A DNA stretch of 64,000 bases, from positions 2,976,001 through 3,040,000 of the forward strand of contig OY759316.1 in the NCBI GenBank assembly GCA_963662275.1. The letters are read 5' to 3'. Positions within the stretch are counted from its first letter, which is position 1; the number at the start of each line of letters is the position of its first letter. The notes beneath the pieces are model-generated. The model ran no database searches and was not told where the DNA came from. It saw only the letters and a list, made by a program, of their open reading frames with translations. Of this stretch, positions 15,641 to 60,124 are shown piece by piece. Position numbers and translations under genes: made by a program. Origin of the DNA: Candidatus Cloacimonadales bacterium. GTDB taxonomy: Bacteria > Cloacimonadota > Cloacimonadia > Cloacimonadales > DAONDQ01.

Positions 15641-16648
15641 ATGGAGCATAATCATCAGTTGATGACGGAAAATACAGAATGTCACAATTTCAAGATAGGA
15701 AAATTTCCTTTCCTGGTCTATTATCATACTGTATCAGACAGACATCTGCCTCATCTTCGATATTTAATCCACATGAAGACATCCAAGGAACTTGAAACGG
15801 ATCTGGACTACCTGGGAAAGCATTTTAAGTTCATCACGCTTGCTCAATTCCAAGTTTTACTAGAGAATGGACAACAATCTGGAAAACGAAAATTAGTTCT
15901 TACGTTTGATGATGGCTACAGTGAAGTGTCCGATATCGTACAGCCATTGTTGATTAAAAAAGGAATTCCAGCAGCTTTCTTTGTCCCAAGTCGTTTTCTT
16001 GATAATAAGGACATGTTTTATCGCTGTAAAGTCAGTATTATTCGGAATTTTATAGCTACACACACTCTTTCTGAGTCATTATTACATAAACTATCTGAAA
16101 CTCTCCATAAACCTTTATCATCAAAATACGACTTAATACGCTTTTTAGTGTCTCTTTGTTATGACAATTCAGGACTAGTCAATTGTATTTCAGAGATCAT
16201 GGGAATTGATTTCAACCAATATCTGGAGAAATATCATCCCTATTTATCCCACGAGCAGATATATTCACTTCTTGCTTGTGGATTTGAAATCGGTGCTCAT
16301 TCAATGGATCATCCTTTCTATGGGAAAATCGCACTGGAAGAGCAACTGAGACAAACATCAACGTCCATGGATTTCATACAACATACTTTTAAATTACCAT
16401 ATCGATATTTTGCCCTTCCCCACTCTGATGTAGGAGTTTCAGCAGAATTTTATTACCATGTGAGGAAAAATGTTGATCTGCTGCTAGGGGGATATGGATT
16501 GAACTCGTATCCGCAATATCATTACTTTCAACGCTTTAGTATTGAAAAGTATGGAATTAGTCCATCTATTGCCTGGAAAATAGAAGCTACAAAAGTTCTT
16601 CTAAAGAAATCTATTTATCCTTCCTTTTCCATAAATAAAAACAGCTAA
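15641..16648 (+). CDS. Polysaccharide deacetylase (NodB/CE4) family protein
   Basis: LVLTFDDGY, AAFFVP, FEIGAHSMDHP, YFALPH motifs. Confidence 0.88.
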   Translation: MEHNHQLMTENTECHNFKIGKFPFLVYYHTVSDRHLPHLRYLIHMKTSKELETDLDYLGKHFKFITLAQFQVLLENGQQSGKRKLVLTFDDGYSEVSDIVQPLLIKKGIPAAFFVPSRFLDNKDMFYRCKVSIIRNFIATHTLSESLLHKLSETLHKPLSSKYDLIRFLVSLCYDNSGLVNCISEIMGIDFNQYLEKYHPYLSHEQIYSLLACGFEIGAHSMDHPFYGKIALEEQLRQTSTSMDFIQHTFKLPYRYFALPHSDVGVSAEFYYHVRKNVDLLLGGYGLNSYPQYHYFQRFSIEKYGISPSIAWKIEATKVLLKKSIYPSFSINKNS

Positions 16649-16770
16649 TAATGCATATCATTAGTATCTAGAAGCTTATGCTGATTTGATTAACTATTAT
16701 TTCTTTTGTTAAAATTAGTTCTTAATGAAATGGATTGATTTGTGCATTTAAACACGTTAGAGGGGAAAAA

Positions 16771-19719
16771 ATGCGAATTCAATCTAAGATATTAATCCTG
16801 GTTATAATTTTTCTTTGTGTCTTTCTTCTATTCTTACTCGTCTATACATATAGTCAGAGTCATGTTAAAGACATGCTTATACAAAGTGATAAATTTCAGA
16901 AGGAAAACTTTATCAGTTCAATTCTATATTTGCAGCAAGACCAATTCAATAGGATCAGGAACGATGAATTCAAGGGTAATGCAGCAGCAACATCAATTCT
17001 CTCAGCGAATCGGGAATGGCTTAATCAAAATATCAACCCCTTACTCACTTCAGACGCCATCGATTGTGTTTGGTTGTATGATATGTCAGGGAAGCTTATC
17101 TATTTCACATCTAAAAATAATCATGATAATCTAAAAGACACCGGATTTCCTGAGAAGGATTTCGATTCCATATTTTTACCGACAGATAATTACTATCATA
17201 AATATACGACTGCAGGTTTCATGGTATACAGTGGTATGATCATATCAGATAATACCATTAGTATCTTAGACAGTAAAACAAAGTGTTATTTGATCATAGG
17301 TAAATTATGGGATCATGAATTCTTTGCAGATTTGGGACGTAGAATAGGTTATGAAATCAATTTGGTTCCTTATGATAAGAATATGAAACAGTCTGGAAAA
17401 CTATTGAGAGATATTGCTGAGGACAAGATATCAATCAATCTATCTGATGAAAACAAAAAAATAATTGCAATTCTTGAATTTACTCGTGTTAATCAGTTAC
17501 TCAGCCGTTTTGATGAATTATCACTCAGAACAATCCTATATTTTTTCCTAATTGCTGGACTCATGACTCTAATTTCATTGTTCTTACTAAAAAAGTGGAT
17601 CAACACTCCCCTTAAATGGATATCTAATAGTCTAAGATCAAACGATCCTGCGTTATTATCTAATCTTGAGAGAGATACAACCGAATTCGGTGAAATTGCT
17701 CAATTGGTAGATAATTTCTATTCGCAAAAACAAATGCTCGAAAACGAAATGGATGAACGCAAGACAGTAGAAATTATCCTCAGAAAAAGTGAAGAGAAGA
17801 ATCACGCTTTACTAAAGGCAATTCCTGATTATATGTTCATTATAGATGAAAATGGGGTTGTCATTGATTATAATAACCAACCCAATCAAATCACGAATTT
17901 GAAGATATCGGAGTTTCTGAATCAGAATATACGTGATATTCTTCCTTTATCTATTGCCCAAGAGGCATTACAAAATGAGCGAATGATCTTAGATAACAAA
18001 GAAACAGCTAATCAGGAATTTACGCTGGTAATTGATGGTGCCACCAGATACTTTGAAGCCCGTTTCGCCAAATGCAGCGATACCACTGTTCTGATCATGG
18101 TCAGAGATGTATCTGAGTTGAGAGCTTCTGAACGTGCCCTGCGTATGAGTGAAGAAATAAATCGTGCCATCGTTGAAGGCTCTCCCTTAGGTATTACTGT
18201 TCGAAGCAGTACAGGTAAACTACTAGTCTATAATCGAGCCTGGCGTAAAATATGGGCAATTCCTGATGAAATCATAGAATTTGATCTTTCCCAGAAACGG
18301 AATGAAATGCATTTTGATACTCGTGATGATTATTTGAATAAATGGCAGGAAGCAGTAAAGGAGATATATGCAAAGGGAGGAACACTTTACATACCGGAAG
18401 CCAAAACCCTTGGACGCCGTCCTGGTTCAGCGGAATGGATTGCCCAGTATTTTTATGCAATTATGGATCAGAAAAATAATGTCGATCGGGTTGTCATTAT
18501 CACTGAGGATATTTCGGCTCGAAAACGCTCACAAGTGGAATTACTTACAGCAAAGGAACAGGCAGAAGATGCCAGCCGTGCAAAAACTGTATTTTTAGCC
18601 AATATGAGCCATGAAATGCGAACGCCTTTGAACGGCATTCTCGGAATGACCCAACTAATCATAAAGCGTGATGTACAAAATGAAAACTATGAGCAGATGC
18701 ATATTATTCAATCATCTGCACAGGTACTCCTGCAATTGATTACCCAAATACTCGATTATTCAAAATTAGAAGCAGAAAATCTGAAAATGGAAATAACAGA
18801 TTTTTCTATCTATGCTCTAATGGCGGAAATTCAGAAGAAATATCGCAGTATCGCTCTCAAGAAAAATATCGCTGTTGAAATCAATATAGACCCTGCAGTT
18901 CCAGGTTTGATAACATCCGATGCAAAAAGAATTTCACAAGTTATCTCGAACTTAGTGGACAACGGAATCAAGTTTTCAAGTGAAGGCTCTGTCATGTGCA
19001 CTGTTCGCGTTGAAAAGGGAATCTCAGATGTCGTCATGCTTCATGTCATAGTTACTGATCATGGTATTGGTATTCCAGCAGATAAACATGAGCAGATATT
19101 TAAATCTTTCATGCAAAATGGTGGTGACCCGAATTTATTTACAGGAAGCACTGGTTTGGGTTTGGCAATCTGCAAACGAGTTATTGAACATTTGAATGGA
19201 AATATCTGGCTCGAAAGCGAAGTTGGAAAAGGTGCTTCTTTCCATTTTGTTGTTCCAGTTTCAGTCATGGATAACCATCTTCAAACCCCTGATTTCTCAC
19301 ATGTATCAGAACCTGTTGCAGAAATAAAAAAATCCAATCAATTAAGAATTATTGTAGCAGAAGATAATCTGATCAATCAGAAAGTGTTGATGAAAATTCT
19401 GGAGAAATTGGGACATACTGTTGGTTTAGCATTAGATGGAAAACAGGCAATCGCTTTTTGGAAAGAGGATACTTATGATCTTATTCTGATGGATATCCAA
19501 ATGCCTGAGATGAATGGAATTGAAGCAACTTTACATATCCGTGAACATGAAAAGGTAACCGGTGCCCACATTCCAATCATTGCTGTTACAGCTTATGCAA
19601 TGGTAGGAGATAAAGAGAAATTCCTTGTCGCAGGGATGGATGAATACATTCCAAAACCTATCAATGTGAATCAATTGAATGAGATTCTGCTGAAGATAAT
19701 CGCGTGGAAGAAGAGTTAA
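16771..19719 (+). CDS. Hybrid sensor histidine kinase (2 TM, PAS x2, HisKA, HATPase, REC)
   Basis: [17 protein letters not shown]-box, [16 protein letters not shown], receiver AEDNLINQ...[11 protein letters not shown]; start at the ATG after AGAGGGG. Confidence 0.95.
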
Positions 19720-50552: not shown

Positions 50553-50555
50553 ATT

Positions 50556-51076
50556 CGTAGGGGTCCGCGTCAGCAGACCCGTTATCAATTAAAGCTCGTT
50601 AGGTCTGAATCGTAGGGGTCAGCGTCAGCAGACCCGTTATCAATTAAAGCTCGTTAGGTCTGAATCGTAGGGGTCCGCGTCAGCAGACCCGTTAAAAATT
50701 AAAGCTCGTAGGTCTGAATCGTAGGGGTCAGCGTCAGCAGACCCGTTATCAATTAAAGCTCGTTAGGTCTGAATCGTAGGGGTCCGCGTCAGCAGACCCG
50801 TTATCAATTAAAGCTCGTTAGGTCTGAATCGTAGGGGTCAGCGTCAGCAGACCCGTTATCAATTAAAGCTCGTTAGGTCTGAATCGTAGGGGTCCGTGTC
50901 AGCAGACCCGTTATCAATTAAAGCTCGTTAGGTCTGAATCGTAGGGGTCAGCGTCAGCAGACCCGTTATCAATTAAAGCTCGTTAGGTCTGAATCGTAGG
51001 GGTCAGCGTCAGCAGACCCGTTATCAATTAAAGCTCGTTAGGTCTGAATCGTAGGGGGCTGCGTCAGAAGACCCGA
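50556..51076 (+). repeat. Tandem REP array: nine ~55-bp units plus a tenth degenerate REP
   Basis: Units start at 50556, 50611, 50666, 50720, 50775, 50830, 50885, 50940, 50995, 51050. Each is CGTAG-GGGTC(C/A)GCGTCAGCAGACCC plus a constant linker. Confidence 0.95.
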
Positions 51077-51101
51077 TTTCTTTTACCATTTGCACTCTTT
51101 T

Positions 51102-51129
51102 AACGGGTCTGCTGACGCGGACCCCTACG
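51102..51129 (-). repeat. Inverted REP copy upstream of RAYT
   Basis: AACGGGTCTGCTGACGCGGACCCCTACG is the reverse complement of the array REP. Confidence 0.9.
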
Positions 51130-51156
51130 CTGCAACAACTTTTATGGAGGGTTGAC

Positions 51157-51684
51157 GTGAGTTATGATTATTATAGTAATCGACATTCAGTTCGTTTACG
51201 AGGTTATGATTATGCTCAAAATGGTGCATATTATGTGACTATTTGTGCATATGAGAAGCAAAAACTTTTTGGTGAAATCCGCAACAACATTATGAATGTT
51301 AACGATCTTGGGGCTATATTAGAAGAAGAATGGTACAAAGTAGCTCAAATAAGAAATTATATGATTTTGGATGATTACATCGTGATGCCTAATCACTTTC
51401 ATGGAATCTTTTTCATTAGCAATGATAGTAATATCCAACTGCCTTATCATGAAGATGACAAACCTATACTATATCAAAATTCATTGGGTTCTATAATTGG
51501 AGGTTTTAAAGCGGCAGTTACCAGACATTGTAGAATCATATTAAATAGTCCAAAACAAGAGATCTGGCAACGTAGTTTCTATGATCATATTATACGTAAT
51601 GAAGATGATTTGAACCATTGCAGAGAATATATTATACAAAATCCAGCCAATTGGAATAAAGACGAAATGTTCATGAAATCGTAG
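51157..51684 (+). CDS. REP-associated tyrosine transposase (RAYT, Y1 HUH)
   Basis: RHSVRLRGYDY..GAYYVTIC, HUH motif MPNHFHGI, WQRSFYDHIIR, catalytic Tyr in EYIIQNP; GTG after GGAGG; flanked by GTAG REPs. Confidence 0.93.
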   Translation: MSYDYYSNRHSVRLRGYDYAQNGAYYVTICAYEKQKLFGEIRNNIMNVNDLGAILEEEWYKVAQIRNYMILDDYIVMPNHFHGIFFISNDSNIQLPYHEDDKPILYQNSLGSIIGGFKAAVTRHCRIILNSPKQEIWQRSFYDHIIRNEDDLNHCREYIIQNPANWNKDEMFMKS

Positions 51685-51759
51685 GGGTTCGCATCAGCAG
51701 ACCCGTTCCACGAGTATAAATGGCAAAAGAAATCGGGTCTGCTGACGCGGACTCCTACG
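51680..51759. repeat. Inverted REP doublet (REPIN-like) downstream of RAYT
   Basis: CGTAGGGGTTCGCATCAGCAGACCCG (51680-51705) and inverted copy 51734-51759; the GTAG supplies the RAYT TAG stop. Confidence 0.9.
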
Positions 51760-51768
51760 AAGCAATGT

Positions 51769-53888: not shown

Positions 53889-55297
53889 TTACTTTCCTTT
53901 TTTATATCATCTTCGGTAAAACCGAGCTTGCGCATGTGCTTTGCAGAAAGGTGTTTCTCAAGTTCTGTCTTCGACATCACACCCTTTTCAATGACCAAAT
54001 CGCTGAATGAACGATTCGTTTTCAAAGCTTCATGAAGTATCTCTTCCACTTTGTGATAACCGATAATGGGAACAAGCACTGTAGCTAAAGTCTTACTATT
54101 CAATACCAGTTCCTTGCACTTTTCTTCATTGGCAGTCATACCTTTCAGGCATTTCTCACGAAGAATGGTAGTGGCATTCACCAATAGATGAAGTGTCTCC
54201 AACATGGTAAAAGCAATTAACGGAAAATACTGGTTCAGTTCAAGCTGCCCCATTCCGCAGGCTATTGTTATGAGGTTATCATTGGAAATGACACGTAATG
54301 CCACCTGCCCTATCGCTTCCGGTATCACAGGATTGATCTTACCCGGCATGATGGTGGAACCTGCCTGCATTTCAGGAAGACGAATCTCTGAAATACCTCC
54401 ATCCGGTCCCATGTTCATCAGTCGCAAGTCATTTGATATCTTCAATAGGTTGGAAGCATAAGTTTTAAGCATACCTGAGATTTCCACAAAAGGGTCGAGA
54501 TTCTGGGTGGCATCGACGAGGTTTTCACTGCGGGAAATACTCAATCCAGTTAAGGAACGAAGCACTTCTCCCACTTTAAAGATATATTCTCTCGGTGCAC
54601 CGAGACCAGTACCGATCGCAGTTCCACCGAGATTGATGACTTTTATCCTTTCCCTGCATTTGAAGATACGCCAGCGGTCACGAGCAATGGCTTCCGCATA
54701 AGCACCGAATTCCATGCCAAGTGTTAAGGGAACTGCATCCATCAGCTCTGTGCGTCCCAACTTCACGACATGTCCAAATTCCTGTTCCTTAGCCTGGAAC
54801 TCTTCCTGTAACCAGGATATCTCTCTTTCCAAATCTTTAAGATAGAATAAGACAGCCACTTTCAAAGCTGTTGGATAGACATCATTCGTTGATTGGTGCA
54901 TATTCACATGTTCAAGAGGAAGCACAGGATCATTGGAACCAAATGTATCATCCAATTTGCGATCTGCAATAAAGGCGATGACTTCATTAAAATTCATGTT
55001 TGTGGAAGTACCTGCACCACCCTGGAAAGGATCGACCACAAACTGGTCATGATGCTCACCTTCGATGATTTCATCACATACTTGGATGATGGCTCTTGCA
55101 GTTTTTTCTTCGAGATAGCCCAGGTCAGAGTTCACCTGCGCTGCTGCTTTTTTCACATAGGCAAAAGACTTTATGAAATATGGTTGCATCTTATAGCCTG
55201 ATAATGGGAAGTTGTTGATCGCACGCTGGGTTTGCACACCCCACGCTGCATCTTCCATGATCTCGATCGTTCCCAATCCGTCTGTTTCTAATCTCAT
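53885..55297 (-). CDS. aspA: Aspartate ammonia-lyase (fumarase/aspartase family)
   Basis: QGGAGTSTNMN, QSTNDVYPTA, GSTIMPGKINP signature. Confidence 0.88.
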   Translation of the reverse strand: MRLETDGLGTIEIMEDAAWGVQTQRAINNFPLSGYKMQPYFIKSFAYVKKAAAQVNSDLGYLEEKTARAIIQVCDEIIEGEHHDQFVVDPFQGGAGTSTNMNFNEVIAFIADRKLDDTFGSNDPVLPLEHVNMHQSTNDVYPTALKVAVLFYLKDLEREISWLQEEFQAKEQEFGHVVKLGRTELMDAVPLTLGMEFGAYAEAIARDRWRIFKCRERIKVINLGGTAIGTGLGAPREYIFKVGEVLRSLTGLSISRSENLVDATQNLDPFVEISGMLKTYASNLLKISNDLRLMNMGPDGGISEIRLPEMQAGSTIMPGKINPVIPEAIGQVALRVISNDNLITIACGMGQLELNQYFPLIAFTMLETLHLLVNATTILREKCLKGMTANEEKCKELVLNSKTLATVLVPIIGYHKVEEILHEALKTNRSFSDLVIEKGVMSKTELEKHLSAKHMRKLGFTEDDIKKESK

Positions 55298-56478
55298 CCC
55301 TTCCTCCGTAACAGTCTGTCTTTCCGTTTATTCCAATCTATCAGCACTTTCTCATTTTCATTTGAATCATTTTCCAGATAATATAATGCCTTTTCCACCC
55401 ATTTCAAAGCTTCACCGGCATTCTTTCCCGTGTGTTCAGCGAATATCGCCAATTCGCGAATAGCAAACAACTCACCTTTCTCGGCAGCTTCTTCCCATAG
55501 TTTCAGGGCTTTTTCCAACTGCTGTTCCTTTTTGAAAAGAAAGGAAAGCTGCTTCAGTACAGCGGTATTATCAGTGGAAAGCATAGTCTCGTAGATGTCA
55601 ATCGCCGTCTGTGTCTCCCCCATTTCCTCATAAAGACGACCAACAGCAAAAAGATCAAACTCTGTATGAGTTTGACGTGAATGTGGCACTTCCAGTTCAT
55701 CAGAAATGAGATGCAGCAGCACGGGCATACTGAGGATATCACTGCGGTTATGATTAAAGATATTCACGATCTCTTCGGCATTGTGCGTATCCAGGTAATG
55801 GAAATATACTTGTGGTATATGACCACCCCATATATCCTGGGAAGAGTCGCGCATACTACCTAAAATGTAGTACTCGAGACTTTCCAGGGCACAGCTTTCC
55901 AACTGGTGTTTCCACAACCTTCTTGCTAACGGAAGTAAATCTAGATGCGGAATCCGCTTCCAGGAGAAGTCCACTCCCTGCAGGATGCATCGTGTTTCCA
56001 AAAGATTCGTATCGAATGACTTACCATTGAAGGAAACAATGATTTGAAACTTCCTTGCCCTTTCCACAACCTGTTCCAGCATACCTTTTTCATATCCAAG
56101 ATTGGAAAGAAAATACTGCTCGATAACTACTGAGTTCTCTCGAATGAAACCCATGCCCACCATGAAGACATACGTACCTGTACCCCCTGAAAGACCAGTG
56201 GTCTCAGTATCGAGAAAGAGCATCTCTTCGGGTGTGAAATCTATATCCTTGAGCTTAGCCCATTTCCGTATCAGATCATGAACGGCAGGACTTTGCACTT
56301 TATGCTTACCAACCTCAAAGCCAAAAGGAAAGGAAATCGATGCCTTGAAGACTGAACCATATTGAGTTTCTATCAGTTCACCTTCCATCATATCCCAGAT
56401 ATCATTGCCCGTTTCCTTGGGCTTTTGTACCTTCTGCTCTTTCGGATAGCTGCGTTTCAGGATATCAAGATCATTCAT
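55294..56478 (-). CDS. YprB/MrfB-like RNase H-fold (DEDD) exonuclease with TPR tail
   Basis: FLDTETTGLSGGTG, SFNGKSFD, HLDLL, HNRSDI; downstream of a DUF1998 helicase. Confidence 0.88.
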   Translation of the reverse strand: MNDLDILKRSYPKEQKVQKPKETGNDIWDMMEGELIETQYGSVFKASISFPFGFEVGKHKVQSPAVHDLIRKWAKLKDIDFTPEEMLFLDTETTGLSGGTGTYVFMVGMGFIRENSVVIEQYFLSNLGYEKGMLEQVVERARKFQIIVSFNGKSFDTNLLETRCILQGVDFSWKRIPHLDLLPLARRLWKHQLESCALESLEYYILGSMRDSSQDIWGGHIPQVYFHYLDTHNAEEIVNIFNHNRSDILSMPVLLHLISDELEVPHSRQTHTEFDLFAVGRLYEEMGETQTAIDIYETMLSTDNTAVLKQLSFLFKKEQQLEKALKLWEEAAEKGELFAIRELAIFAEHTGKNAGEALKWVEKALYYLENDSNENEKVLIDWNKRKDRLLRRKG

Positions 56479-56492
56479 ATTTCAATTGCTCC

Positions 56493-56540
56493 TATTCCTC
56501 CCTTATGCTAAGGGAGGTGGCATTTATGCCGGAGAGTTAG
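56493..56540. repeat. 48-bp direct repeat (left copy) containing hairpin CCTCCCTTA-TGC-TAAGGGAGG
   Basis: 47/48 identical to 57214-57261. Confidence 0.92.
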
Positions 56541-56566
56541 ATATCTATACGTTTTAACAAATATCT

Positions 56567-56953
56567 TTATCTCTCTTCGGTATTCATCACATTTTCTGGT
56601 TCTTCAATAACACATCGAATATATTCCATAACACCATCTATATTCGTGAGCACATTATAATTTGTTAACCTTAATACTCGTATATCATGCTCTTGAAAAA
56701 ATAATGTTCTTTTCCGATCGTATTCTGCATTCTCTTTTTCAAAGTGCTGACTTCCATCAACTTCTATTATTAACAATTTATCCGGACAATAAAAATCAGC
56801 GATATAGTTACCGAAACCGCTCTGTCTATAGAATTTTAGCCCCAACAATCTTTTATTTCTCAATCGTGACCATAGCTTGCGCTCAGCTACAGTTTGCTCT
56901 TTCCGGAGTTCAAGCCTTTTGTCTTTGGTTGAGTACAAATTAATTAATTTCAT
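56567..56953 (-). CDS. DUF559 (Vsr-like) endonuclease domain protein
   Basis: LRKEQTVAERKLWSRLR, KFYRQ, YIADFYC, IIEVDGSQH, YDRKRT, VLRLTN; AGGAGGGAG RBS. Confidence 0.9.
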   Translation of the reverse strand: MKLINLYSTKDKRLELRKEQTVAERKLWSRLRNKRLLGLKFYRQSGFGNYIADFYCPDKLLIIEVDGSQHFEKENAEYDRKRTLFFQEHDIRVLRLTNYNVLTNIDGVMEYIRCVIEEPENVMNTEER

Positions 56954-56979
56954 TTACTCCCTCCTATTATTTTAACCTC

Positions 56980-57261
56980 CTAACTCTCCACCCTGAAGGG
57001 TACCTCCCTTAGCATAAGGGAGGTGGCTTTTGTACCCGTCTTATTCCTCCCTTATGCTAAGGGAGGTGGCATTTTGCTCCGTCCAATTCCTCCCTTATGC
57101 TATGGGAGGTGGCATTTTGCTCCGTCCAATTCCTCCCTTATGCTATGGGAGGTGGCATTTTGCTCCGTCCAATTCCTCCCTTATGCTATGGGAGGTGGCA
57201 TTTTGCTCCGTCTTATTCCTCCCTTATGCTAAGGGAGGTGGCATTGATGCCGGAGAGTTAG
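56980..57261. repeat. Hairpin array with 43-bp period upstream of the DUF559 gene
   Basis: CCTCCCTTA...GGGAGG hairpins start at 57003, 57046, 57089, 57132, 57175 and 57218. Confidence 0.93.
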
Positions 57262-60124
57262 TTCTTCTTTTATCAACAAAATACTCCAAAAGCGCCAATG
57301 TCTCCGCCTTCGCCCCTTCCCCATTCTCTGCGACCGGACCGACACAGGCGGGACAGCCATCCTTACACCCACAGGTCAGAATGACTTTCATGGATTCATT
57401 CATTATGGTATTATGAATTTCATACATCTTCTCACTTAAACCAATACCACCCGGTACCTGGTCATATAAGATAACCGCAGGCTTTCCATTTGCCACAGAA
57501 GCATTGGAACTGCCCATCACACCAATATCCTTGATATCGCACATCAGATACAATGGAGCCAGATTACCAAGTACATAGGCAAGACCAGCCATACCACTTT
57601 GGATGCGGGCTTGCTGCTCTGCCAACTTGTGACAGGAAGAGCAGAGGGTTGTCAAGTTCTTAAGTGCGTTGGCTTCATCCCGATTCATGAACTTGCGGAA
57701 AGGCACTATATGATGCACATCATGCGGTCTGTCAGTTTCAGCGATATGGCAATGCGTGCATTTGAATTCATCCCGTGTCCTTGCAGCCTGGCTGATTTCC
57801 TTCCACTTCGGACCATAGGAATTCGGATTGTTCTTCCACTTCTCGGCTTTCTCTAATTCATCCACTACCTGGTCTTCGATTTCAAACCAATAACCATATG
57901 TGATCAGCTCTGTCTTGGGCAGATCAAGCTCACCATAGCCCAATATCTCCTGGGAATACCATTTCACTTTCTTGAAGCCAGTCACCTGGTTAGTTACCAG
58001 CAGTTTTCCATAATGAATGGAACCACCCATCACAGGCATCAATTTATCTTCATGAATCAATTCAATTTCTGTGTTGCTCATCGGCTGTGTGTAGAATCCT
58101 TCCGAGAAAGGTCTCATCTGCACAGTATGTGTCTTTGTATCAATGCTTTCCACGAGGTATGATTCCCCATCCTGAAGATATACAGCCTGGGGATGCACAA
58201 GCCAATACACGCTTTTATCATCTACTTCCCCGATCACGTTGCCGTTCACGATGAGATTATATCGATCCAAACCGGCATTACGCAGCGATATCTCATCCGC
58301 TGGATAATCCTCTGATTTCCAGAAATACTGTTCATTGGATTCGATCGCTTTCCCCAATTGCTGAAGAAAATCGAGATAATCCTTCAATTCATCGATGGGA
58401 AGAGCACCGAATGTCTCATTCTTGGAGAAAGGCTTCTCGAATAAGGCACACTGCAAATGCTGCATGAGAATGAACGGATTGTTCGGATTCAACAGCGCCA
58501 TTTCCGGTGAACCACCGAAGAGAAAGTCAGGATGCTGAAGAATATACTGGTCTAATAGGCTGGCAGAAGCGATCATGAATGCAACGGATGACTCCGCTTT
58601 GCGTCCTGCTCTTCCCGCTTGCTGACGTGTAGCAGCGATCGTACCGGGATAACTGCACAGCACCACCGCATCCAGGCTTCCGATATCGATACCCAGTTCC
58701 AGGGCATTGGTGGAAACAACCGTCGAGATCGTTCCTTCCCTGAATCCCTTTTCAATCGCTCTTCTATCAGTTGGAAGATACCCACTGCGATAGCCTTGAA
58801 TCTTTTCTTTATGCTCTGAAGCATTCTGTAAATAGGTAAGAATTAGCTCAATCGCCTTCCGTGCCTGGGCAAAGACAAGCGTCTGGAATCCGCATGGCAT
58901 AATGTTTTCTGTAACTCTCACCGTTTCCATGATCACACTTCTTCTAATTCCCAAATCCTTATTCACGAATGGCGGATTATAGAGCAGGAAATGCCTCTCT
59001 CCCTGGGGTGAACCATCCTGCTCGATAAGGTCGAAGTCTTCTTCCAGTAAAGTCGAAATGAATTCTCTTGTATGTGAAAGAGTAGCTGAAGTGAGAATAT
59101 ATTGAGGATAAGCGCCATAGAAATTTGCTATTCTTTTGAAACGCCTAAGCACATTGGCAAAATGAGAACCGAACACTCCGCGATACACATGCACTTCATC
59201 GATGATGACAAACTTCAGGTTGCGAAAAAAATCCACCCACTGCGCATGATGCGGTAAAATGCCCATACTCAGCATATCAGGATTGGAGAAGATGAAGTTA
59301 GCACTGCTGCGTATCTGCTTCCGTCTTTCAGTAGGTGTATCACCGTCATACATCCCACAAGTGGGAAGTGCGAAGTTCGAAGTCCGAAGTGCGAAGTAGG
59401 GATTTACGGAAGGAAATCCATCATTGGAAGTTCGAAGTGAAGAATCGGAAGATTCAGAATATCCACCTTTGGGAAAGGTCTCCGATAATTTCCCCTTGGG
59501 AAGGGCTACCGAAGACAATCCCCCCTTGGGAAGGGCTACCGAAGACAATCCCCCCTTGGGAAGGGCTACCGAAGACAATCCCCCCTTGGGAAGGGCTACC
59601 GAAGACAATCCCCCCTTGGGAAGGGCTACCGAAGACAATCCCCCCTTGGGAAGGGGGGTAGGGGGGTCTATTCTTGGGGAAGTGCGAAGTCCGAAGTGCG
59701 AAGTCCGAACGGCAGAATCAGATGTATTATCACTTTGTTGATAAACCAAATTCAAAAACGCACTCAACTTCCCATACTGATCTTGTGCCAATGCTTTCGT
59801 GGGAAAAAGGAATAGCCCTTTCGCTTTGGGATTGGATTGTAAAGTCTGAAGTATCGGAAGCTGGTAGCAAAGGCTCTTTCCACTGGCAACACCTGTCGAA
59901 ATGACGATATTCCTGCCTTTCATGACAGCTTCATACGCCATCACTTGGTGACTGTAAATGCTGTACACACCGGATTTCAGCAGTGCATGCCGCACATTTT
60001 GATGCAAATCGTCCGGCAGATCTGCAAACACTGCTTCCTTGGCTTTATCGATATGATGCACAACGAAGCAATCCCTGAAATCAGGATCCGCCTTCATCGC
60101 CTCGATCAGATGTTCTACTTTCAT
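57224..60124 (-). CDS. YprA/MrfA (SftH/Hrq1-like) DEAD/DEAH helicase with DUF1998, inserted HNH domain and repeat-derived insert
   Basis: TGVASGKSLCY, DEVH, SAT, TNALELGIDIG, QQAGRAGR, LYDQVPGGIG, CGCKDGCPAC. Confidence 0.93.
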   Translation of the reverse strand: MKVEHLIEAMKADPDFRDCFVVHHIDKAKEAVFADLPDDLHQNVRHALLKSGVYSIYSHQVMAYEAVMKGRNIVISTGVASGKSLCYQLPILQTLQSNPKAKGLFLFPTKALAQDQYGKLSAFLNLVYQQSDNTSDSAVRTSHFGLRTSPRIDPPTPLPKGGLSSVALPKGGLSSVALPKGGLSSVALPKGGLSSVALPKGGLSSVALPKGKLSETFPKGGYSESSDSSLRTSNDGFPSVNPYFALRTSNFALPTCGMYDGDTPTERRKQIRSSANFIFSNPDMLSMGILPHHAQWVDFFRNLKFVIIDEVHVYRGVFGSHFANVLRRFKRIANFYGAYPQYILTSATLSHTREFISTLLEEDFDLIEQDGSPQGERHFLLYNPPFVNKDLGIRRSVIMETVRVTENIMPCGFQTLVFAQARKAIELILTYLQNASEHKEKIQGYRSGYLPTDRRAIEKGFREGTISTVVSTNALELGIDIGSLDAVVLCSYPGTIAATRQQAGRAGRKAESSVAFMIASASLLDQYILQHPDFLFGGSPEMALLNPNNPFILMQHLQCALFEKPFSKNETFGALPIDELKDYLDFLQQLGKAIESNEQYFWKSEDYPADEISLRNAGLDRYNLIVNGNVIGEVDDKSVYWLVHPQAVYLQDGESYLVESIDTKTHTVQMRPFSEGFYTQPMSNTEIELIHEDKLMPVMGGSIHYGKLLVTNQVTGFKKVKWYSQEILGYGELDLPKTELITYGYWFEIEDQVVDELEKAEKWKNNPNSYGPKWKEISQAARTRDEFKCTHCHIAETDRPHDVHHIVPFRKFMNRDEANALKNLTTLCSSCHKLAEQQARIQSGMAGLAYVLGNLAPLYLMCDIKDIGVMGSSNASVANGKPAVILYDQVPGGIGLSEKMYEIHNTIMNESMKVILTCGCKDGCPACVGPVAENGEGAKAETLALLEYFVDKRRTNSPASMPPPLA
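59461..59668. repeat. In-frame 30-bp tandem repeat inside the helicase gene (LPKGGLSSVA)
   Basis: CCCCCTTGGGAAGGGCTACCGAAGACAATC exact at 59521, 59551, 59581, 59611; variant at 59491; terminal perfect hairpin at 59640-59658. Confidence 0.95.

Follow-up and report, generated by a model that had tools for sequence, protein, structure and literature searches.

Positions 56493-57261 of the DNA analyzed here contain a compact insert in which a gene for a DUF559 protein, bracketed by hairpin-forming repeats, lies between the genes for an MrfA/YprA-type helicase and a YprB/MrfB-like protein. The window is the whole stretch of 64,000 nucleotides (G000:C1:2976001-3040000) taken from a complete 4.38-Mb genome of the Cloacimonadales with 39% G+C, hereafter G000, and positions are those of the window unless given in megabases or as genome positions. 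The genes of this region are all on the minus strand. DUF559 is a widespread nuclease-fold domain with YcjD as its Escherichia coli member and, on the basis of sequence and arrangement, we propose the protein encoded here as a candidate partner enzyme of the hairpin-plus-purine-box repeats that surround it.

The DUF559 gene (56567-56953, minus strand) encodes a 128-aa member of the Vsr-fold PD-(D/E)XK nuclease family. Its product scores 107.9 bits with the Pfam family DUF559 (PF04480; cut-off 20.6) in an alignment that spans positions 5-108 of the 109 in the profile, and no transposase family in Pfam matches the open reading frame (ORF). The sole solved relative by sequence is PDB entry 3HRL (E 5e-28). 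Five residues (D53, E64, D66, H70, and D79) are invariant across 64 aligned DUF559 relatives and, judging by the fold family, are probably catalytic. An AlphaFold2 model based on this 64-sequence alignment has a mean predicted local distance difference test score (pLDDT) of 88.1. Foldseek matched the model to 3HRL with a template modeling score of 0.91 (target-normalized), to the homing endonuclease I-Bth0305I (3R3P) with 0.72-0.75 (E 1.8e-4) and to Vsr (1VSR) with 0.57-0.59, placing 3HRL closest among the solved folds, I-Bth0305I second, and Vsr third. The protein shares with Vsr, VsrA, and 3HRL the fold and the conserved acidic and histidine residues. It differs from Vsr and VsrA in its genomic setting, the gene being multicopy, bracketed by inverted repeats, variably present between genomes and without an adjoining cytosine methylase gene, none of which was found among the neighboring ORFs scanned with Pfam.

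Three full repeat ends surround the gene, at 56493-56540 (plus strand), 56980-57023 (minus strand), and 57214-57261 (plus strand), each comprising a hairpin, a 12-nt mini-hairpin and then GGAGAGTTAG. As single-stranded DNA, all three are predicted to fold into a 9-bp hairpin and a 4-bp mini-hairpin with the GGAGAGTTAG purine tail unpaired (z -3.1 to -4.9). The two inward ends, 56980-57023 and 56493-56540, are the terminal inverted repeats of the cassette, giving it a likeness to a transposon or miniature inverted-repeat transposable element. The first of these, the 5' inverted repeat, has the mini-hairpin ACCCTTCAGGGT and a GGAGAG box followed by TTAG that faces the DUF559 start, from which it is separated by a spacer (56954-56979, minus strand) containing the ribosome-binding-like AGGAGGGAG; it is also found by the genome-wide detector described below. 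The 3' inverted repeat has the mini-hairpin GGCATTTATGCC and a box facing the DUF559 stop, and the start of the YprB/MrfB-like gene (55294-56478, minus strand; RNase_H_2 and TPR), the downstream neighbor of the insertion, lies 15 nt beyond it. The distal end (57214-57261; pattern match at genome position 3033218-3033257) consists of a 9-bp C/G hairpin, the mini-hairpin GGCATTGATGCC and the purine box GGAGAG plus TTAG (fold z -4.6). Its box is directed away from DUF559, into the 3' end of the helicase gene, and it forms the outer end of an upstream doublet.

The hairpin itself, CCTCCCTTA-NNN-TAAGGGAGG, occurs seven times in the window with 0-1 mismatch, where 0.00 copies are expected (100 shuffles). 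Six copies, starting at 57003, 57046, 57089, 57132, 57175, and 57218, lie upstream of DUF559 at an exact 43-bp spacing and the seventh, starting at 56497, lies downstream; Tandem Repeats Finder reports 57003-57245 as an array of period 43 with 5.7 copies and 94% matches. The full end at 56980-57023 is inverted, with its loop reverse-complemented and with CTAACTCTCC and a different mini-hairpin on the opposite side. The inner part of the doublet (57046-57213, plus strand) is made up of hairpin-plus-spacer units of the same 43-bp period that have no purine box, three of the hairpins having one stem mismatch. The region 56980-57261 is a REPIN-like inverted doublet, the inner hairpin-plus-spacer unit of which has been amplified into the 43-bp array. 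Inner amplification is also found in other doublets of the genome (genome positions 1006883-1006985, 2938087-2938195, and 3669320-3669426).

The distal repeat reaches into the helicase gene (57224-60124, minus strand; 966 aa). Because the helicase stop codon (57224-57226) falls inside the loop of the distal hairpin, the final 12 codons and the stop (57224-57259, frame read from the sequence) consist of repeat sequence. In a second genome of the same genus (G001), the helicase has a stop of its own, which precedes the first hairpin by 14 nt. An earlier note on this DNA, made from the letters alone, had described a DUF559 gene between yprA- and yprB-like genes with 48-bp repeats, a 43-bp array and an inverted proximal copy, and had stated that the repeat supplies the last ~12 codons and the stop of the helicase; the former description is borne out by the sequence, pattern search and Pfam, and the latter by the reading frame. 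The 48-bp direct repeats (56493-56540 and 57214-57261) differ by one mismatch, located in the mini-hairpin loop. We considered them as a target duplication or as attachment sites and rejected both, as they are two ends in the same orientation, one of which belongs to the upstream doublet, and in G001 the doublet is on the other side of the gene: there, a single inward end precedes DUF559 and the doublet lies downstream instead of upstream. The mini-hairpin differences, which had been taken as structural covariation, instead distinguish two kinds of end, both of which are conserved in the sister species at their respective positions. No target-site duplication was seen at the junctions in comparison with the sister species and with empty sites, which are too diverged for base-exact comparison. 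Five public read runs from two studies contain the stretch, none of those listed being RNA, and their Logan contigs break at the repeats; no joint is reported and none of the pieces listed covers the stretch from end to end, making these reads uninformative on excision, circles, array length, or expression.

The gene and its ends are both under purifying selection. G001 carries the same cassette at the same site with a DUF559 protein that is 87% identical. Between the two orthologs, the synonymous divergence (dS) is 1.48, with synonymous sites saturated, and the nonsynonymous divergence (dN) is 0.089, a dN/dS of 0.06 that indicates purifying selection on the protein. The noncoding ends are identical at 43 of 44 positions (proximal) and 51 of 51 positions (3' end), or 94/95 in total, and the spacer leading to the ATG has diverged. 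The presence of the cassette varies between genomes at a wider phylogenetic scale. In four of ten order-level loci, all from other families of the order, the helicase gene abuts or overlaps yprB with no cassette between them (no helicase lies within the fetched flank of the remaining six), which is the empty site that the earlier note had proposed looking for. These relatives lack the whole cassette, repeats included, and no allele with repeats but without the gene was seen for this site.

Ten DUF559 frames are present in G000, three of them solo (this locus, 1.437 Mb, and 2.244 Mb) and seven in tandem at 3.58 Mb. They form four clades with 34-64% identity, the three solo copies being 62-64% identical to one another, and all have the same bracketing layout with arm sequences specific to the clade: CCTCCCTTA/TAAGGGAGG at this locus, CCCTCCC/GGGAGGG plus GGGGAGAGCTAG at 1.437 Mb, CCCGCTC/GAGAGGG at 2.244 Mb, where the gene has an in-frame stop, and CCCCCC/GGGGGG plus GGGGGGTC in the seven tandem cassettes. 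An inward-facing motif was detected upstream of all ten frames and downstream of eight, the two misses being this locus, where the box is below threshold and visible by eye, and a copy truncated by an IS21 insertion. Motif density is 6.3/kb near the DUF559 frames versus 0.066/kb genome-wide. Consecutive inward motif pairs 200-3000 bp apart number 18, of which eight are tight (423-476 bp) and matched, and all eight enclose DUF559; the other ten have ordinary genes between separate insertions. Other small genes were considered as possible cargo, and none was found in the tight matched pairs of the genome-wide scan.

The tandem cluster (G000:C1:3580700-3588100) has a period of ~580 bp and each cassette in it has its own G6-type ends and small ~55-bp arrays. 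An IS21-type insertion with istA/istB interrupts one of its copies, and stop codons are found in two more. G001 has motifs and no DUF559 at its site homologous to the 1.437-Mb cassette. One spacer of G001 (C28:511-3987) has three different triplex-type ends and a RAYT-type REP (RAYT, REP-associated tyrosine transposase) side by side, suggesting an accumulation of repeats from several systems in certain spacers. A G001 cassette at another site has ends belonging to the GGAT-loop/TTTGA family, which is abundant but gene-less in G000.

The ends belong to a larger repeat family in which a C-arm, loop, G-arm, second loop (often TTA), and purine box follow one another. A detector written for this layout found 288 copies in G000 versus 13 in a block-shuffled genome used as the control, comprising 130 of G6, 72 of GGGAGG, 35 of GAGAGG, and 51 of other arm types. 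The hairpins at this locus, previously described as an array of the locus's own, are therefore one subtype of a genome-wide family resembling BoxC and triplex-motif repeats. The detector is strict and missed the end at 56493-56540, where the box-to-mirror match is 5/7 only. The CCTCCCTT...AAGGGAGG hairpin has 86 copies in the genome, and GGAGAG[CT]T[AT]G has 163 where composition predicts ~3.2 per 10-mer and strand; a C/G hairpin adjoins 105 of the 163 on their outer side. There are twenty outward motif pairs with members no more than 600 bp apart, most of them ~105-bp inverted doublets that join two different end types, and short inward junctions of 57-68 bp with no gene are present in doublet arrays. 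These dispersed gene-less copies match the ends that flank DUF559 genes. The repeat ends are often adjoined by short tandem runs of 6-8-bp units (GGTAACA x3, AATTAAGA-type, and CACCTAG-type runs, for example) and by GCAGAG/CTCTGC-type inverted blocks, at many sites.

The association of DUF559 genes with such ends is tight, clade-specific and found across phyla. Of 562 confirmed DUF559 relatives on contigs representing one genome per species, the best 80 were used; these are the closest relatives of the alignment and not a random sample of DUF559, and 79 have a complete frame. They include members of the Patescibacteria, Chloroflexota, Proteobacteria, Bacteroidota, Planctomycetota, Clostridia, Cyanobacteria, and others. 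In these 79 loci, motifs have a density of 5.05/kb at up to 150 bp from the ORF ends, compared with 0.28/kb in the rest of the loci, an enrichment of ~17-fold at the gene ends. Because the latter figure derives mostly from coding DNA, we also scored the ends of 58 neighboring complete genes, which have 0.29/kb and motifs on both sides in 0/58 cases. Of the 79 loci, 48 have an inward motif upstream, 32 have one downstream and 22 have both, and the ends often adjoin the start and stop codons. Within a locus, the upstream and downstream motifs are 0.80 identical, compared with 0.69 between loci; the best-matching motif is the locus's own partner in 11 of 24 loci and motif identity follows protein identity (Mantel r = 0.38, reached by 0 of 2000 permutations), the statistics of both tests ignoring shared descent. 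Both the enrichment of hairpins at DUF559 genes and the covariation of repeat type with protein clade, which the earlier note had put forward as checks, are thus found in G000 and in the cross-phylum set.

Repeats of this architecture have been described from E. coli. According to the accessible part of Holder et al. 2015 (PMC4666352), the BoxC/TM_ECO repeat consists of a C-rich arm, a loop of 3-6 nt, a G-rich arm, a second loop of 3 nt (TTA or CCG), and a second purine block, and E. coli triplex-motif (TM) repeats form inverted pairs of type A and type B; that same part of the paper reports no mobility genes near TM_ECO and mentions ycjD and endonuclease 0 times. The repeats studied here resemble BoxC/PIT/TM_ECO in the order of their parts (CCTCCCTTA, a 3-nt loop and TAAGGGAGG at this locus), in the TTA second loop of the sister families in this genome, in the occurrence of two end types in inverted pairs, and in having intergenic, dispersed copies. 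They differ in that the second loop at this locus is a mini-hairpin of 12-13 nt, not 3 nt, the arms depart from the TM_ECO consensus, the purine box is 6 nt long with a 5/6 mirror match, and the repeats bracket a gene. By sequence, the locus repeats share the BoxC/TM architecture but are not TM_ECO itself, and a triplex form is putative here.

The likeness extends to E. coli DUF559. In strain K-12, ycjD ends 168 bp from TM_ECO no. 9 (Table 1 of Holder et al.), one of 23 K-12 copies, and a degenerate inward repeat copy, recognized by eye, overlaps the ycjD stop codon. A duplicated remnant of a ycjD-like 3' end lies downstream of ycjD and is followed by TM_ECO no. 9 (positions 16040-16840 of the K-12 region extracted). 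No published link of DUF559 or YcjD with BoxC, TM, or triplex repeats was found in the literature searched, which did not extend to the supplementary site tables of Holder et al.

We interpret 56493-57261 as a selfish cassette between mrfA/yprA and mrfB/yprB that consists of a DUF559 nuclease gene and its cognate repeats and is organized like a REP/RAYT system around an unrelated Vsr-fold enzyme, and we put the probability of this reading at roughly one half. Like REP/RAYT systems, it combines a single small gene with inverted copies of a hairpin repeat on either side, repeats of this kind (those of the 1.437-Mb and 3.58-Mb clades) are also scattered through the genome, forming inverted doublets and tandem arrays, and one genome has several gene clades, each with a repeat of its own. 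It is nevertheless not a member of the REP/RAYT group: the enzyme is a Vsr-fold hydrolase instead of an HUH/Y1 transposase, the repeats carry an extra purine box, no RAYT locus shares them, and the chemistry cannot match. We infer that the protein would bind or cut the ends and thereby cause their spread. Under this model, the nuclease would recognize its cognate end once folded, whether in single-stranded DNA at a replication fork or extruded as a cruciform or triplex, and would nick there. Host repair and replication would then copy or amplify the ends, giving rise to gene-less doublets, solo ends and arrays, and the gene would occasionally be moved together with its ends. The reaction would have to differ from that of RAYTs because the enzyme is unrelated, probably comprising a hydrolytic nick with no covalent strand transfer.

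Several points weigh against this reading, in addition to the selection of close relatives and the shared descent mentioned above. We know of no way in which a PD-(D/E)XK hydrolase could join strands, so spreading would have to lean on host functions. The exact subtype of this locus (loop TGC/GCA) is confined to it within the genome, with four exact and three one-mismatch copies, and shows no sign of dispersal; the dispersal described above is that of the repeat types of the 1.437-Mb and 3.58-Mb clades. Furthermore, the GGAGAGTTTG family (TTTG box) has 104 motif copies and no cognate DUF559 gene in this genome, such a gene having been seen only in G001. In the cross-phylum set, no upstream motif was detected in 31 of 79 loci and none on either side in 21, and the inverted-repeat score of upstream and downstream flanks exceeds the 99th percentile of the control in 12 of 77 loci, a test weaker than the motif test as its mismatched-pair control is inflated by motifs common between loci. 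Within the order, DUF559 is present in 20 of 41 genomes and a CCTCCC-type pattern in five, all of them DUF559-positive (94 matches in G000, 8 in G001 and 1-3 in each of three others, the remaining 36 having none, as did all 41 with the control read backwards), a comparison of little weight either way as the pattern covers one arm type only; several of the matches directly flank DUF559 genes. The mirror relationship between purine box and G-arm expected of a triplex motif is imperfect at this locus, where box GGAGAG agrees with mirror GGAGGG at 5/6 positions, and a crude test of it was equivocal (29 vs 35 at >=6/7). As loop A's and G-runs blurred that test, we adopted a cleaner one using 98 asymmetric arms near DUF559 genes, in which the mirror match was better in 34, the direct match in 9, and 55 were ties. 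Lastly, the Caulobacter DUF559 protein VsrA is, in the part of the source available (PMC12907096), tied to a cytosine methylase and DNA damage and not to repeats; this is the only functional link that we found in the DUF559 literature, itself covered in part.

The best-surviving alternative, distinctly less probable than the cassette with cognate repeats, is that the DUF559 gene is free-standing and encodes a homing endonuclease of the Vsr-like/EDxHD kind. Its product would cut repeat pairs that lack the gene, and the gene would be copied into them by break repair, with the ~45-bp ends serving as homology and the repeats spreading independently through slippage or recombination at folded DNA. 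Consistent with this, the catalytic domain of I-Bth0305I is the second-nearest solved fold, and the accessible part of one study assigns a DUF559 gene to the I-Bth0305I-type homing endonuclease family (PMC9403480). The DUF559 gene always sits between two inward ends, and the doublet arrays include the inward junctions of 57-68 bp that have no gene. The largest repeat family has no gene in this genome, as expected if the repeats need none, and the G001 counterpart of the 1.437-Mb site likewise has repeats and no gene. Similar to I-Bth0305I, an EDxHD enzyme, the DUF559 protein has this type of catalytic fold and is encoded by a small, putatively selfish nuclease gene; however, the two are 21-23% identical, DUF559 is not located in an intron or intein, and its structured inverted flanks occur without the gene by the hundred. 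The ends also differ by clade and track the protein, which under homing would call for subtype-specific nucleases and hence for partners once again. In addition, the 62-64% identity of the three solo copies gives no sign of recent copying between sites, and the genome contains no empty target of this locus's exact subtype.

We regard as improbable a second alternative, in which the folded repeats are fragile, recombinogenic DNA and DUF559 is a housekeeping Vsr-type mismatch nuclease that lies or is retained there without acting on them. TM repeats have been linked to local rearrangement with no mobility genes nearby (Holder et al., PMC4666352, in the portion accessible), the intergenic site corresponding to 1.437 Mb carries several repeat types in G001, and the link of Caulobacter VsrA with methylation-related damage (PMC12907096, in part) would suit such a role. 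The fabI-ycjD-sapF region of E. coli is also variable: 2080 of 5426 complete genomes have no match of at least 80% coverage to the K-12 query, and in ten variant genomes among the matches listed, the fabI-side match stops ~40 bp before TM_ECO no. 9. Against this explanation, all eight tight pairs in G000 are inverted, subtype-matched and a few tens of bases from the start and stop codons, and enclose no other gene. It likewise fails to account for the difference between 0.29/kb at 58 neighboring genes and 5.05/kb at DUF559 genes in other phyla, for ends that are 94/95 identical at a dS of 1.5, and for the amplification of seven cassettes as units of gene plus ends. The one variant E. coli genome inspected, strain 536, has a segment with a TetR regulator and RND efflux genes instead at this position.

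A purely regulatory role, with the ends acting as terminators, processing sites, or stabilizers of the DUF559 transcript or its transcription and the dispersed copies being the same signals, is highly improbable, since although the ends adjoin the ORF (box 0-45 nt from the start codon, stop codon beside or inside the end motif) and the hairpins are stable, sequence inspection found no T-run after the hairpins at this locus, Rfam assigns the ends to no family (the best match, to a microRNA family, reaches 26.3 bits where the gathering score is 98), the ends are found in either orientation, as doublets, in arrays and inside coding frames (the helicase tail and an N6_Mtase ORF of the order-level genome G013), and a simple terminator has no use for the purine box, which tends to mirror the G-arm.

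A broader proposal, which we hold more tentatively than the reading of the single locus, is that the pan-bacterial BoxC/triplex-motif repeats have their missing partner enzymes in the DUF559 nucleases. Enzyme and repeats would together make up a new class of mobile or self-propagating elements: a Vsr-fold hydrolase would recognize folded ends (hairpin or triplex) in a clade-specific manner, and nicking followed by host repair would spread gene-less doublets. The repeats are abundant, linked to genome instability and without a mobility gene beside them, as described in the accessible part of Holder et al. 2015. The pairing of DUF559 with the repeats makes both of them accessible to bench experiments. 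If the protein does drive repeat spread, this would be a partnership of repeat and enzyme parallel to REP/RAYT with different chemistry, and a source of structure-specific nucleases. G000 is unusually informative in this respect, being complete and combining four gene clades with as many repeat types, and should the proposal hold, its four clades, seven tandem cassettes, and ~290 motif copies would be a natural test bed.

The earlier note had also likened the layout to that of a RAYT locus at 50.5-51.8 kb of the window. The arrangement is indeed of a similar kind, but the repeat is unrelated (9.5 copies of a 55-bp unit). At 50555-51760, these tandem copies contain a GTAGGGGTC...GACCC palindrome and are followed by an inverted copy, an ORF, and further copies downstream. 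The ORF (51157-51684, 175 aa) scores 63.5 bits with the NCBIfam model for the REP-associated tyrosine transposase, where the cut-off is 80, and has no Pfam match at E <= 0.001; we consider it RAYT-like, a probable relative below the cut-off. G000 has 15 Y1_Tnp/RAYT-type matches, most flanked by distinct palindromic repeats of their own and often by long tandem arrays, and its set of REP/RAYT systems is unusually rich. A RAYT was considered as the partner of the hairpins described here and rejected: inspected by eye, the flanks of the 15 loci do not contain these repeats, and the flanking repeats that are visible differ.

DUF559 domains also occur inside longer reading frames. In G013 (C37:19800-21400), one (residues 234-327) is embedded in frame in the central part of a type I methylase-like N6_Mtase ORF, a repeat match lying ~90 bp upstream of the domain, and DUF559 matches inside long open frames are present in four further genomes of the order (G004, G014, G025, and G026). 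The MrfA/YprA-type helicase next to the cassette comprises the Pfam domains DEAD, Helicase_C, WHD_HRQ1, HNH, and MZB, of which the HNH endonuclease domain (29.8 bits) is inserted at residues 789-834 (57624-57761), directly before the MZB zinc domain.

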